Assembly (NCBI RefSeq): GCF_047663525.1
Contig: NC_092619.1
Location: 4,565,441 to 4,629,440, forward strand
Length of the DNA: 64,000 nt
Reading direction: 5' to 3'
From: Anas platyrhynchos
Lineage: Eukaryota
Shown here: piece by piece, positions 41,101 to 50,100 of the stretch
Numbering within the stretch: the stretch's first letter is position 1
Layout: every line of letters begins with the position of its first letter
Made by a program: the position numbers

Positions 41101-44100
41101 CTCCACGCTCCAGGTTTTCAAGCACACACGCATTTGTGGATCCCTCAAGTACCTATCATGGCTCTTCTGTCCACCTGGAACCCCTGCCCAGACCCCAGAC
41201 CCTTTACCTACTTCAGGGGCCACCTACTGACTAGCTGCTCCAGCTTTCAGTGCACTGCAAATGCACACAGTCACACACCGGTCCCTCATGCACACCACAG
41301 ACACAAGCATTCCAGGGCATAGCAGCATGGACCCACTACCCGAGACCCCCACCCCTTGCTGTCCAGCCCAGATTAAAGTCTGTGGGTGAATGCCCACGCA
41401 TGGGCCTCCCCCACCCAGCGCCGTGCCCCCAGTGCCGTTCCCTCAGGGCTCGGTAACGGCCGCACCCCCCTGCACACCGCTCCCCACCCAGCCCGAGAAG
41501 CACCCAAAGGTGCCGCCACTTCTGCGCATGCACAGGCGGAACTTGGGAGGCACCGAGGTTGTGGGGGGTTCGTATGTGGGGTCCCCGAGGCAGCAGAGGG
41601 GCTGAGGCAGAGGGAGGGAGGGAGGGAGGCTGGGAAGGGGAGCAGGGATGTGAGGTGATGGGGAGGGGATGAGCAGTGTGAGGAACGGGGGGGGGGAGAC
41701 GGGTTTCCACCCTATCCCGGGACATCCCAGCGCTCCCACAGGGATAAAAGGTTTCTATTTCACTTTCTACAGCTACAAGACAGGAAGTGACTGACAAGTC
41801 ATGGAAAGCAAGAATTCTAGACAGTAAGAAAGCTATGGTAATAAGTATACCGTACTTTGTTGCACATAAATTCTGTGCAACAATAAGCTATTGTAGGTAA
41901 GAATAAGCTGCACTGCTTGCTTAAATGGTTATGAATTGAAACAACTGTAATTATAACCACAGCTCTACGGTCTTTCCTCACTCTGCCAAGAATCCCTAAA
42001 TAACCTGCCAGTCCCCATAGCGCCAGCTGAAAGATGTCCTTAACATTTCTGCTGCCTCCCTGCAGCAAAAAACTCCTGCTCTAGGGGGAGGGGGGGGGAT
42101 TGCGTCCTGCAACAGCCACTCATCCGCAAGCATCTGCCTCTCTTTTGCAGCAGCACCGTGGTGAACTGGGGCATCAAGAGGCAGTATGGAGAAAATCATG
42201 GCACATCTCCTGCGGGAAACCCTTGAAGAGCTAGGGAGATACGCCTTCCCGAGATTCAAGAGGGAACTCAGTAAAATCCAGCCCGAGGAGCAGTATGAGC
42301 GCATCGAACTGGAGAGCCTGATGGGGCTGTCACGAGCAGCCCTCGCCGAGCTGCTGTGCAGCCACTACGGACAGCCCTATTGTGTGAAGGTTACAGTCAG
42401 AGTGCTGAAGGCCATGGGAAGGAGCACCCTGGCATATGCACTCCTGCACAGGCTGACCGATGGTAAGTTGGGGGAAATAAGATTCAGGCAGGGACTGGGG
42501 TAGCCCTGAGTCGAAGTGACCCATACCTGTTACTGCAAGTGCTGCAGAAGCCTGTTCCCCTTGGCACTGTACTGCCTTCAGCCCAAAATGCTGTGCCAAG
42601 ACACACACCTCAGAACCTGGTCCCATAGAGAGCAAATGCTTCCTTCTACCCAGGTCTCCCTGGAATATCTGGGTTGCACTTACATGTCTGCAGTTGGTGT
42701 AAATAACTTGTAGATGAAGCAACATGCTCTCTGCTCCAGCCTCATCCCAGAGAAGCAGCTGGAGGGTCCCTGCACAACCCCACCTCTCCCCATTGGCCCC
42801 ACTGCAGAAAGGCAGAATGCACTGGATGGGGCTCTGGGCTACACAGGGCTGGGGCACCCTCCTGGGTGGAGGGCAAGGGGTTCCTGCCCAATTCCACCAT
42901 CCCACCTTCATCAGACCTTGCACTTCCCTGGGGGAAGAAGGAGGGAACTTGACACATCAACCATTCAGATTCTTTCATAGCTGGAACTACCCTGGTGAGG
43001 TATGAATTGCACCAACTTTATTCTCCACTTCTCTACAAGGGGCAAATTTTGTCGAGCGCTACAAAAAAATTGTGATCCAGCAATCCTCTAATGTGGCTAA
43101 TGTCATCATGGCTCTCCTCCATGAACATGTACTGACCTCTGAGCAGTCTGACAGCATCATGTCAGAAAGAACCAACCACAAGAGAATGCAGAAGCTCTAT
43201 GAACTAGTGCCAACGTGGGATGTCACAAAGAAATATTGCCTGTATAAGGTTCTATGTGCAACAAATCCAATTCTCACTTTAGCATATACAGGTAAGAAAT
43301 GTACCCTTACTATCTTCCCAGCTGTGAAAAAGTCAAGATAGGGGCTGGGCCTTTCAGGATAATGAGCCAACTACAGTTGCATATAAACACCTTGTCCTTG
43401 GGATGGTCAGGAGCCATTTCTATAGGAGGTGGCAGCACATCAGTTACTGTCAAACGACAAAAGTAGAGGAGGCTATTAAGAACACATTAGGAAAACTCAT
43501 GCTTCCAGCTGAATCCCAGGACTGCAGATATAGTGCTTTAACCCTAATTTTTTTCACTTCTCTGTCTCCTCTGTCCTGCAGCTGTCCAGGCACAGGGTAG
43601 CATCATATTAAAGGGTAAGCGCTGTGTGTGCTCTATACCATCATTCCCTTGGTTTTTGAATGCATTACCCTTCCAAAGTCCCCTCCTGTCCCATTTGGTA
43701 CTGTAAAGCATTTTAAGATGGCTGAGGATCCAGGCAGTCCTTGGCCATCGGTCCCCATCCTTGAGCCATGCACTGAATGATGCTGTAAGGTGCTGCTCTC
43801 CCATACCAGAGCAAGTATCCTCTCCTGTTGCTCAGCTGCATTTCTTTACTTAGACGCTGTCTCACCTTTGCTGTGCTTCAAGCAGCCTTTCCCAAGGCCT
43901 TGAGGCAATCAAGTCACCCTGTTTTCTGGAACTCACCACTGACTCCTCTCTCTTGCAGATCCCTGGGAAGACATTTTCTATCCTCAAGGTGAGCTCTGAA
44001 CTACTCAGCATTGTCTTCCCTTTATTTACTGAATACATCATCCTCACAAAGTCCCCTCCTGTCCCATTTGGTGCAATAATGCATTTTAAGATGGCTGGGG

Positions 44101-47100: not shown

Positions 47101-50100
47101 TCTTTATTTAGAAGCTGTCTAACCTTTGCTGTGCTCCAAGCAGCCCTTCACAACCCCTTGATGCAATCAAGTCACTCTGCTTTCTGCACCTCACCACTGA
47201 CTCTTCTCTCTTGTAGGTCCCCAGAAAAACACTGCAGAACTTCAATGTGAGCTATGAACTTCTCTGCATGTTCGTGCCCTCGTTTTCTGAATGCATCACC
47301 CTCGCAAAACCACCTCCTGTCCCATTCAGGGCTCAAATGCATTTTAAGATGTTTGAGGACCCAGACAGTCCTTGATCTTTGCTCTCTGTCCTTGAGTTAC
47401 GAACTGGACAGTGCTGGAAGGTTCTGCTCTCCCACACCAGAGCAAGTACATCCTCCTGTTGCTCCGCTCCATTTCTGTACTTAGAAGCTGTCTCCCCTTT
47501 GCTGCACTCCAAGCAGCCTTTCCCAATCCCTCAAGGTAATCATGTCACCTTGCATTCTGTACCTCACCACTTACTCCTTTCTCTTGCAGCTCCCCAGTAT
47601 CCGTCTGAACCTGTACGTCAGGGCGGTAAGTGCTGAGTGAGCTCAGAACTGCTCATCACCATCATGCCCTTTTTTTCTGAATGCATCACTCTCCCAGACT
47701 CCCCTCCTGTCCCATTTAGTGCAATAATGAAGTTCAAGATGGATGAGGATGCACGCAGTCCTTGCCTTTTGGTCCCTGTCCTTGAGCTATGCACTGGACA
47801 GTGCTGGAAGGTGCTGCTCTCCCACACCAGAGCAATACCTCCTCCCATCGCTTGGCTGCATTTATTTTCTTTAGAAGCTCTCTTTCCTTTGCTGTGCTCC
47901 AAGCAGCCTTTCCCAAGCCCTCAAGGCAATCATGTCACCCTGCATTCTGTACCTCACCACTTACTCCTCTCTCTTTCAGGTCCCCGGGCACAGTCTTTCA
48001 TTAAATTTCACGGTGGTAAGTGCTGGGTGAACTCTGAACTGTTCAGAATTGTCATCCCCTCATTTTCTGAATGCATCACCCTCCCAAAGTCACCTCCTGT
48101 CCCATTCAGTGCTCTAATGCATTTTAAGGTGGCTGAAAATCCAGGTAGTCCTTGGCCCGTGGTCCCCATCCTCGAGCTATGCACTGGACAGTGCTGGAAG
48201 GTGCTGCTCTTCCATAACAGAGCAAGTACTTGTTTGTGTTGCTCAGCTGCATTTCTTTTACTTAAAAGCTGCCTCTCCTTTGCTCTGCTCCAGGCAGCCT
48301 TTCCCAAGCCCTCGAGGCAATCAGGTCACCCTGCTTCCTGTACCTCACCACTGACTCCTCTCTCCTCCAGGTCTCTGGGCAGTCTGGCCTTAGTAATCAG
48401 GGCGATAAGTGCTGAGTGAGCTCTGAATTGCTCAGTGTCATCATCTTCTTATTTTCTTAATGTATCACCCTCCCAAAATCCCCTCAGGATATACCCTTCC
48501 AGAAGCAGAGCTGGCATTGAGTTTCCAACTTTTACCTGTGCATCCACAGCAGGCACCTGGCTCCACTACAGACTGAGCCTTGGAGGGAAAAATCTCTCCA
48601 CTTCTGAGATGACAGGCTACAAAACTATGAAATTTTGGCTATGAAAGCCAAAGAAATTATGGCTGAACCTAGATGTTCCTCATGAGGAAATGCAACACAG
48701 CGAGTATCTCCCTTCAGCCAAGCCCAGACCTGTCCTGGGCAGTGGAGTGGAGGGATCCAAGTCCACCTTTCTTCTCACTGCTGGAGAGAGAGAAAAAACC
48801 ACCTCAGCTGGAGCAAGGTGGGCCACAATCTCAGCTCCACTTTGAGTAGCCACTCAAGACTCAAAGTGTACATGCAAAGGCAGCAAAGTATCTTGCAAAC
48901 ATAATCAGGGAATAGCACAAAGGGGGCTCCCATGTGGCTATGCCTCACAGCAGGGAGGGTTCCACTGACTTCACTCCAGTTCTCTTCCCAGTATCATTCA
49001 GGATAAGAAAATCAGAAACATTCCTGGCAAGTGTATTATCACAACTGATAAAACAAAATTAAATTCACACTGCAGCCAAATACCTAAGAGCTGTGTGCAG
49101 AATGGAGAGTTACCCAAAGCAGCAGTTAGATCAATTCAAATTCTATGTAGTCATGCTACTTAAAATGTCTAACAATCTAGACAGTTCTTGGCTTTTGGTT
49201 TCCTCCTTCATAGTATGTCCTGAGCAATGATACAGCATGTCACTATTCCAGGAAGTGGCAAGTGTCTTCTACAGCTCAGCTGCATTTCTGTTTGCTGTTC
49301 CCCAAGCTGTCTTTTTCAAGGGATCTACTGGGAAATGGAAGTACAGGGAGGGTGGGAAGAGGCCATTCCTCAGGCCTCCTGCTGCTGAGCAAGAAATATG
49401 GGGCTTAAATGTCAGCTGGGATCTCTTGGCTTCAACCTTCATGAATAGACCCGCAAGGCAGGCAGAGGAAGGATCTCAAGAGGTTTAGGGGAAAATGTAA
49501 AGGTGGGTTCTGAACTGGGACAGCTCCTCTGGAGCATTCAGGCTCAAGTTCCTACAAGACCTCAGGAGTTGGGGAGGTCATCACAGCTCCTGAGGCCTTA
49601 GGGAGAAAGGATGCTCACTTGCTTGTTACTTGACAGCTACAGCTGGGGACTTGCCCTCTAAAAAGACAGACTGGTCGGACGAGGGCAGCAGCGTCCATGG
49701 GGCAGCAGTGTCCATGTTACCACTCTTTGGAGACATTGATAAGAGCACCAGTCCCAGTTCGGGCAGCAACACACGTTCAGGTGCCATCTGCATGTCATGT
49801 CGCGCTGAAGAGGTAAGGCAGTACTGGGTTCTCCTTACTCCTGTCCTCACCTTGGCTACAAGAGCTTCTTGGAGCTCCTCTCCAAGGGCAGCATGTGAGT
49901 GCATGAAGACATCCAGCAGCTGGGCTCAGGGTCTGCACATCTCTGCCTGCTCACGCTATTGTGGTTTCCCAGGCTACCCTTGTACACATCCATCTCTGGT
50001 GTTGACCAGCAAAGGGAAGTGAAAAGGGGGATTCATTTCCAGTCACTTCAGTGCATCTGGATACAATCCTAATGAGTTCTTTGACTCATTTCATGTGGGA

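Follow-up and report, generated by a model that had tools for sequence, protein, structure and literature searches.

What does a tandem array of very short exons contribute to an innate-immune locus whose domain-coding exons lie on either side of it? The question is raised by a 64,000-nucleotide stretch of the mallard genome (Anas platyrhynchos; contig NC_092619.1, positions 4,565,441 to 4,629,440 of the forward strand; hereafter the window, in which all positions are counted), where repeated units of about 380 bp, each holding a mini-exon, separate exons for a PYD and a CARD from exons for a FIIND and a second CARD. An initial annotation of the window had left three readings side by side, namely that the mini-exons are (i) alternative 3' exons of an ASC-like gene, (ii) the disordered N-terminal linker of a CARD8-like gene, or (iii) part of a single gene of the order PYD-CARD-[repeat linker]-FIIND-CARD. 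The third gives the best fit: the PYD-CARD head, the linker, and the FIIND-CARD tail probably belong to one mallard gene, in which the array would provide a linker of cassette exons acting as the "tripwire" of a sensor protein.

Joining 21 exons (the PYD exon, the exon of the first CARD or CARD1, ten mini-exons, and nine downstream exons) yields one open reading frame (ORF) of 753 codons, and the phase-1 compatibility previously noted for the PYD exon, the CARD exon donor, and the exon at 49637 was confirmed in this splice. The conceptual protein is identical at 740 of 753 positions to mallard RefSeq XP_038027491, with 100% identity in the linker; this is isoform X1 of an older NCBI annotation that treats the locus as a single gene with isoforms X1-X5. 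Models from black swan, mute swan, turkey, pheasant, and grouse show the same domain order, PYD-CARD-linker-FIIND-CARD, the fused pheasant model being a compact 6-kb gene. The exons outside the array, all on the plus strand, are as follows.

42186..42462, plus strand: first coding exon, with the start codon and the PYD, 277 nt, phase-1 donor (Pfam PYRIN 5.7e-16; GT after 42462; exact match to RefSeq P0024).
43040..43291, plus strand: CARD1 exon, 252 nt, phase 1-1, a cassette (Pfam CARD 2.4e-6).
49637..49812, plus strand: exon A, 176 nt, entered in phase 1 and left in phase 0, ATAGDLPSKK...CRAEE.
51497..51561, plus strand: exon A2, 65 nt, DWAEEVKPEIIGDKRGKKEIY (tblastn; direct sequence reading).
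51888..52108, plus strand: FIIND (ZU5) exon, starting in phase 2 (Pfam FIIND 1.8e-13).
52236..52492, plus strand: FIIND exon with the SF/SP autoproteolysis motif and the start of UPA (Pfam; alignment to human NLRP1 F1212/S1213).
53109..53474, plus strand: two UPA exons, 53109-53234 and 53318-53474 (Pfam UPA-FIIND).
53671..54107, plus strand: two small phase 1-1 exons, 53671-53712 (42 nt) and 54054-54107 (54 nt, a cassette).
54765..55066, plus strand: last exon, with the C-terminal CARD and the stop codon (Pfam CARD 3.4e-20).

Two boundaries of the initial annotation had to be moved. The donor of the CARD exon, formerly placed at 43303/43304, lies 12 bases away at 43291/43292, and the FIIND exon starts at 51888 rather than 51856, the exon 51497-51561 having been overlooked between 49637-49812 and the FIIND. 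A splice with the acceptor at 51856 kept the frame open, but was discarded when database proteins revealed the 65-nt exon and the acceptor at 51888. That first conceptual splice had matched the mallard RefSeq protein with 94% identity at 100% coverage in a database search, its differences from RefSeq being due to the missed exon and the misplaced acceptor. A CR1-like 3' end (ccctgtgattctgtgattct) was observed at 51470-51496, a few bases short of the acceptor of the 65-nt exon.

The array itself comprises 11 head-to-tail units of 373-391 bp, each with a homologous exon and intron. Tandem Repeats Finder reported periods of 373 and 390 bp across 43653-45592 and 46589-48485 with scores of 1470-2023, and blastn of the unit together with block alignment resolved the array into a first unit followed by two higher-order blocks of five units; the two mallard copies of this block, which includes a fragment of a CR1-type long interspersed element (LINE), are 86.9% identical. 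Ten of the 11 mini-exons are flanked by AG and GT, measure 30, 33 or 36 nt, and are without exception phase 1-1 and open in phase 1, exactly as the initial annotation had described for ten units. The features of the array are listed below.

43560..48485, plus strand: tandem array of 11 units (Tandem Repeats Finder; unit blastn matches only inside the interval; block identity).
43582..43614, plus strand: mini-exon E0, 33 nt, AVQAQGSIILK (peptide in five database models).
43959..43988, plus strand: mini-exon E1, 30 nt, DPWEDIFYPQ.
44332..44361, plus strand: mini-exon E2, 30 nt, GPQKHTIELQ.
44705..44740, plus strand: mini-exon E3, 36 nt, GPRAQSGFSNQG.
45096..45131, plus strand: mini-exon E4, 36 nt, GLWAKSGLSNQG.
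45486..45521, plus strand: mini-exon E5, 36 nt, GPPAQSVYIVPD.
45593..46589, plus strand: 3' fragment of a CR1-type LINE in the intron after E5 (the sixth mini-exon), a member of the higher-order unit.
46844..46873, plus strand: mini-exon E6, 30 nt, DPWEDIFYPQ, the same peptide as E1.
47217..47246, plus strand: mini-exon E7, 30 nt, GPQKNTAELQ, final base T (left out of RefSeq isoform X3).
47590..47625, plus strand: mini-exon E8, 36 nt, (S/A)PQYPSEPVRQG.
47980..48015, plus strand: mini-exon E9, 36 nt, GPRAQSFIKFHG.
48371..48404, plus strand: dead eleventh mini-exon, 34 nt, with an ATAAGT donor and a 2-bp deletion, out of frame.

The last unit had already been recognised as lacking a donor; to the ATAAGT found there must be added the 2-bp deletion, with which the frame is gone as well, and the eleventh mini-exon in its mallard-window form was absent from all protein models fetched. 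The CR1 insertion, once thought to break a unit, is real but leaves every exon whole, since it is intronic: the blastn alignment of the unit is interrupted at 45592 and taken up again at 46587. An ORF within the fragment (45879-46316) shares 72% identity with a LINE ORF bearing a reverse transcriptase at 15012-16172 of the window. Divergence among the unit introns was measured at 12-17%, in keeping with the earlier estimate of about 10-15%. A degenerate twelfth unit was sought upstream of exon A, where only weak matches were found (E 0.005-0.017), and is not claimed.

A 17-nt indel and a shifted donor separate the genomic forms of the 30- and 36-nt exons, but each exon length is still a multiple of 3. 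In the 36-nt class, the GTAAGT donor precedes by 11 nt a relic of the donor of the 30-nt class; the 36-nt class thus arose via a shift to a new upstream donor. In the sequence that follows the 36-nt exons (for example 44741-44760), gtaagtgctgg is succeeded by gtgaactctgaac, the relic of a gtgagctctgaac donor that is still in use in the 30-nt exons and in pheasant. Two duck-derived models, P0002 and P0031, differ from the window in their mini-exons, with GPPARSVYIVAD in place of GPPAQSVYIVPD and SPRDPSEPVRQG in place of SPQYPSEPVRQG, and with a 13-aa GLWAQSAGLSNQG exon serving as the last mini-exon; such differences suggest polymorphism of the array among ducks.

Conservation within the unit was measured as column identity in a MAFFT alignment of 32 unique units. 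The mean was 0.89 for the acceptor region (-25 to -1), 0.78 for introns, and 0.58 for exons, so that the acceptor region, which contains a CTGAC/CTTAC branch-point-like motif, is the best-conserved part of the unit, and the comparison of splice sites with intronic repeat sequence proposed in the initial annotation comes out in favour of the splice sites. None of the 308 intron windows of 33 columns reached the variability of the exons, and Fitch parsimony on an intron-based tree gave 3.39 steps per site for exons versus 1.91 for introns. Ungapped comparison within the length classes returned exon p-distances of 0.25 and 0.33 versus intron values of 0.12 and 0.17, an exon divergence about twice that of the introns, with ratios of nonsynonymous to synonymous differences per site (pN/pS) of 1.6 and 1.69. 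Phase 1 is free of stops in all 22 unique exons of in-frame length (taken from three species), compared with 17 for phase 0 and 11 for phase 2; of 33-nt intron windows, 71% are open. Each length class (30, 36, and 51 nt) is a multiple of 3, exons of the same phase with lengths divisible by 3 also occur in the swan, pintail, and pheasant units, and the unit devoid of a functional donor is the one that is also out of frame in mallard. Taken together, these sequence comparisons argue for selection under which splice signals and reading frame are maintained and changes in the peptide favoured. The core of the earlier claim, that the mini-exons are selected, phase-1 symmetric coding exons and not chance motifs, is thereby supported by frame, splice-site, and divergence data.

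The array was then followed across birds at three comparison loci, from pheasant (L001), black swan (L002), and pintail (L003). Live mini-exons number 10 in mallard, about 20 in pintail, and 14 in black swan, and array copy number, which the initial annotation had suggested comparing between species, does differ. Pintail carries the mallard-type 5-unit block four times, the last copy being incomplete, and the CR1 gap recurs in each block; the presence of the CR1 fragment inside the repeated block indicates that its insertion is older than the amplification. At 7333-15945 of the pintail locus, 2,871-bp blocks, each of five units and the CR1 fragment, stand three in a row, with 99.6% and 100% identity between successive copies, and 1,256-bp segments of the black swan array share 99.7% identity. 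Copy number must have been altered very recently for successive blocks to be so nearly identical; the identical pintail blocks may alternatively be an assembly artefact, although this is less likely in a long-read assembly. The array as read from these sequences keeps changing its copy number by duplication of multi-unit blocks. Mallard and pintail arrays both end in a dead unit whose donor reads ATAAGT, the frame being lost in mallard only. In pheasant, four 51-nt phase 1-1 exons recur at a spacing of about 385 bp, and their introns show 66-77% alignable identity to the duck unit; the pheasant and duck mini-exons cannot be aligned. The homology of the pheasant units places the origin of the array before the split of ducks and galliforms.

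Phase 1-1 is shared by all exons from CARD1 through the last mini-exon, and any subset of the mini-exons could thus be spliced between CARD1 and exon A with the frame unchanged. Among the black swan RefSeq isoforms fetched, all of them predicted models, at least 17 distinct combinations of linker exons occur. CARD1 is missing from models P0012, P0013, and P0038 and is skipped in some swan isoforms, and the 54-nt exon at 54054-54107 is missing from models P0029 and P0002, so that a second linker, between UPA and the last CARD, is modular too. When the donor of CARD1 is left unused, 16 further codons (GKKCTLTIFPAVKKSR) lead to a stop at 43339-43341 and to a 192-aa PYD-CARD protein of ASC size; the Ensembl-derived mallard protein A0A8B9T352 (P0032, 192 aa) has exactly this read-through tail.

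By every sequence feature tested, the encoded protein is a member of the FIIND-CARD sensor family. Both parts of the FIIND, ZU5 and UPA, are present (Pfam FIIND 1.8e-13 and 7.7e-10, UPA-FIIND 5.8e-6), followed by a C-terminal CARD (Pfam 3.4e-20) with a predicted local distance difference test (pLDDT) score of 75-87. The motif HAVLQDPSF/SPMGV was aligned to human HIVLENPSF/SPLGV, the match dividing exactly at the F1212/S1213 chain break of entry 6x6a. The label CARD8-like given in the initial annotation holds for the family, although the FIIND-CARD half lies closer to NLRP1, its nearest matches being human NLRP1 (1.6e-78, residues 1093-1463) and rat NLRP1 (3.2e-75), followed by CARD8 (1.1e-45). 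No NACHT or LRR was found in the complete 753-codon ORF, and the Pfam domains of all database matches were limited to PYRIN, CARD, FIIND, and UPA-FIIND. The protein is hence not NLRP1 in the strict sense, and the database name "NLRP1b allele 2-like" is a loose one.

The mini-exons together encode up to 111 aa of Gly/Pro/Gln-rich linker, predicted to be without structure. In the AlphaFold2 model, the PYD, CARD1, and CARD2 reach pLDDT values of 71-90, and residues 171-338 stay at about 20-30 with only two four-residue helices; the linker is probably disordered. The 111-aa linker contains 12 instances of Gln before Gly, Ser or Ala and the remaining 642 aa three, a concentration matched by none of 5000 shuffles, and black swan has 10 sites of the form [LFMVI]Q/[SAG] in the linker versus one elsewhere.

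At the other end, PYD and CARD1 are collinear with human ASC isoform 2 over query residues 10-165 (E 4.3e-17, PDB search); a database search with the PYD-CARD part returned Anseriformes matches only and so gave no view of ASC orthology. Short models of 192-245 aa exist, all ending in donor read-through, and most models run on into the FIIND-CARD part. ASC has been reported absent from nearly all birds, with NLRP3 kept and its adaptor unknown (PMC11258412), and the same paper makes no mention of the PYD-CARD start of galloanserine "NLRP1-like" proteins; among the papers searched on avian NLRP1 or a PYD-CARD-FIIND architecture, nothing beyond it was found. The ASC-like head therefore bears on the puzzle of birds that have NLRP3 but apparently no ASC.

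Mammalian NLRP1 and CARD8 carry rapidly evolving linkers that are cut by viral 3C or 3C-like (3CL) and other proteases, upon which the sensor is activated as its N-terminal fragment is degraded and UPA-CARD is released (PMC7857732, PMC10249858). By analogy, the array of the mallard gene is inferred to encode a modular tripwire of a NACHT-less sensor, possibly one aimed at 3C-type proteases. On this view, the linker would be either the site at which a pathogen protease cuts or the point from which degradation sets in. Everything N-terminal of the FIIND break would next be lost to the proteasome, and UPA-CARD, until then retained non-covalently, would be released and would activate caspase-1, the course of events in mammalian NLRP1 and CARD8. 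Duplicated blocks, rapidly diverging exons, and alternative splicing could between them supply diversified bait sequences, and the density of Gln before Gly, Ser or Ala might point to viral 3C or 3C-like proteases as the targets in ducks and swans. A bolder version, which we regard as rather doubtful, would make of the array a spliced library of protease baits, in which Q/G, Q/S, and Q/A sites encoded at exon junctions and exon ends mimic the 3C or 3C-like polyprotein sites of duck picornaviruses and coronaviruses, where a single cut both lays the linker-ZU5 piece open to degradation, so that UPA-CARD is freed, and releases the ASC-like PYD-CARD, and where the locus supplies the "missing" avian ASC. 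Were this true, the Galloanserae would not have lost ASC but would retain an ASC-like module in a FIIND-CARD gene.

Several points weigh against one gene with a selected tripwire linker, and they are best considered together with the explanations that they would favour. The splice evidence is indirect, coming in its entirety from predicted RefSeq, Ensembl, and B10K models, and in the current RefSeq annotations of mallard and pintail the locus appears as two genes, "ASC" and "NLRP1b-like". Mallard thus has ASC XP_071886476.1 (245 aa) and NLRP1b allele 2-like XP_038027496.2 (440 aa), both exact matches to the window and exact substrings of the 753-codon product, pintail has ASC X1 and X2 (210 and 199 aa) plus a separate 643-aa protein, and B10K lists an "ASC protein, partial" for three other Anseriformes. 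Such models are what two separate genes would give, the first being ASC-like with mini-exons as alternative 3' exons, the second CARD8/NLRP1-like and starting in or after the array, with no fused protein made. Options (i) and (ii) of the initial annotation are to that extent present in the databases, but the models that embody them look broken in the repeat: the ASC models terminate in intron sequence entered by read-through of a mini-exon donor (ending in GEL or CEL before the stop), the pintail 643-aa model starts at an ATG within the polypyrimidine tract of a unit (MSPCILYLTTYSFLLQ), and the 440-aa model takes as its start a Met inside exon A, so that 78 in-frame nt of that exon go unused. 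No AATAAA was found between the CARD1 exon and exon A, and fused models exist in the older mallard RefSeq, in two swans, and in several galliforms, among them the 6-kb pheasant gene. We infer that the near-identical repeat blocks defeat modelling based on short reads, whereby one gene comes to be annotated as two. The existence of two separate genes is accordingly considered unlikely, and real short ASC-like isoforms are possible.

The divergence tests, for their part, use paralogous units that are not independent, and one intron window did equal the Fitch rate of the exons. Gene conversion or crossing-over inside units, for which the chimeric-looking E3 may be compared, can inflate exon change relative to the intron tree. 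In the MAFFT alignment, moreover, the 30-nt exons are set wrongly at their 3' ends, for which reason the argument for selection rests mainly on the ungapped within-class comparison, which is unaffected. Spliced but functionless mini-exons, an exonised local repeat tolerated because its frame happens to be open and yielding peptides without a role, would agree with peptides that are short, of low complexity, predicted unstructured, and unalignable between duck and pheasant, with a pN/pS not far from 1, and with isoform models that omit mini-exons freely. This is held to be very unlikely in view of a frame intact in 22 of 22 unique exons from three species, three length classes that remain multiples of 3 despite the 17-nt indel, an array and a phase retained since the duck/galliform split, acceptors more conserved than introns, decay confined to the donor-less unit, and an exon divergence about twice that of introns, which is more than relaxed constraint alone yields. 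A short interspersed element, satellite or other dispersed repeat with fortuitous splice-like motifs and no coding use is scarcely credible: the regular 373-391-bp tandem copies and the embedded CR1 would suit it, but within the 64-kb window the unit matches only 43641-48485, the flanking sequence of the swan and pintail loci gives no match, the pheasant gene carries homologous units at the corresponding position, mini-exons are included in many protein models, and an Rfam scan of 42000-56000 matched no family.

As to the tripwire linker of the single-gene reading, the FIIND is also badly modelled (from a 12-sequence alignment), which makes the low pLDDT of the linker weak evidence of disorder. 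Galliform linkers showed no enrichment of Q[GSA], and Q-G is for the most part a legacy of the ancestral unit and adjoins the donor, so that its abundance may reflect descent and splice constraint instead of mimicry. With Q[GSA] partly ancestral, adjacent to the donor, and absent as an enrichment from galliforms, the protease-specific part of the proposal is put forward as a hypothesis only.

Intact olfactory-receptor ORFs lie at 7374-8384 and 21784-22833, both on the plus strand (Pfam 7tm_4 3.9e-50 and 1.4e-47), and a partial one at about 3022-3498 on the minus strand was identified by eye; with these ORFs and LINEs around it, the gene is not in a recognisable NLRP1, CARD8 or PYCARD neighbourhood. 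At 28308-30231 on the plus strand, an intronless ORF (28765-30231, 488 aa) has six low-density lipoprotein (LDL) receptor class A repeats (3.6e-61) and EGF_CA, and continues in frame into a piece of an avian retrovirus envelope gp85 (4.6e-11). Its sequence suggests a fusion of a processed LDLR/VLDLR-type ectodomain with retroviral env.

The mini-exons stand in public gene models and are to that extent already known, and a literature search found no description of the array. What appears new is a linker at the bait position whose 30-36-nt cassette exons form a higher-order array of variable copy number and evolve faster than their own introns, the linker being attached to an ASC-like head. To the question of how bait regions acquire new specificity, the array brings a concrete genomic mechanism of rapid diversification, its copy number doubling between closely related ducks. 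Ducks being reservoirs of influenza, coronaviruses, and picornaviruses, the sensor is also of practical interest, and the locus illustrates how automated annotation can split a gene at near-identical repeat blocks.

Among known systems, the closest in function would be mammalian NLRP1 and CARD8, with which the duck protein shares a FIIND (ZU5-UPA) with the SF/S break followed by a C-terminal CARD, and a fast-evolving, unstructured region N-terminal to the FIIND, which in duck shows a nonsynonymous excess and many Q/G, Q/S or Q/A pairs. It differs from NLRP1 in having no NACHT or LRR, from CARD8 in that its N-terminus is a folded PYD-CARD pair, and from both in that its linker is encoded by tandem cassette mini-exons of variable copy number. 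The head resembles ASC (PYCARD), especially the linker-less human isoform ASC-b, in that the CARD follows directly after the PYD, and NCBI and B10K do label short models of the duck locus "ASC"; unlike ASC, it heads a longer FIIND-CARD protein in most models.

Varied NACHT-less FIIND proteins were also observed in reptiles (models P0050-P0064 and P0140, from skink, python, turtle, and alligator), with up to six tandem CARDs or a PYD ahead of the FIIND and, in some, a C-terminal PYD replacing the CARD. Skink has both a 21-aa tandem peptide repeat after UPA and the PYD-CARD...FIIND plan. Like the duck protein, these consist of one or more death-fold domains, a variable region, FIIND-UPA, and a death-fold domain; the variable N-terminal region of skink, python, and turtle, however, is made of whole CARDs in tandem, and no peptide repeat of the duck mini-exon type was seen in the sequences read.

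Runs of tandem symmetric exons are familiar from titin PEVK and from the 54-bp exons of collagen. The duck array is like such systems in that small homologous exons can be gained, lost or skipped in frame and encode unstructured sequence, and symmetric exon phase with modular evolution of tandem exons is a known kind of arrangement (PMC3632108). It is unlike them in that its exons are unusually small (30-36 nt) and more divergent than their introns, and in that the whole forms a higher-order repeat with a LINE fragment, situated at the bait position of what would be an innate-immune sensor.

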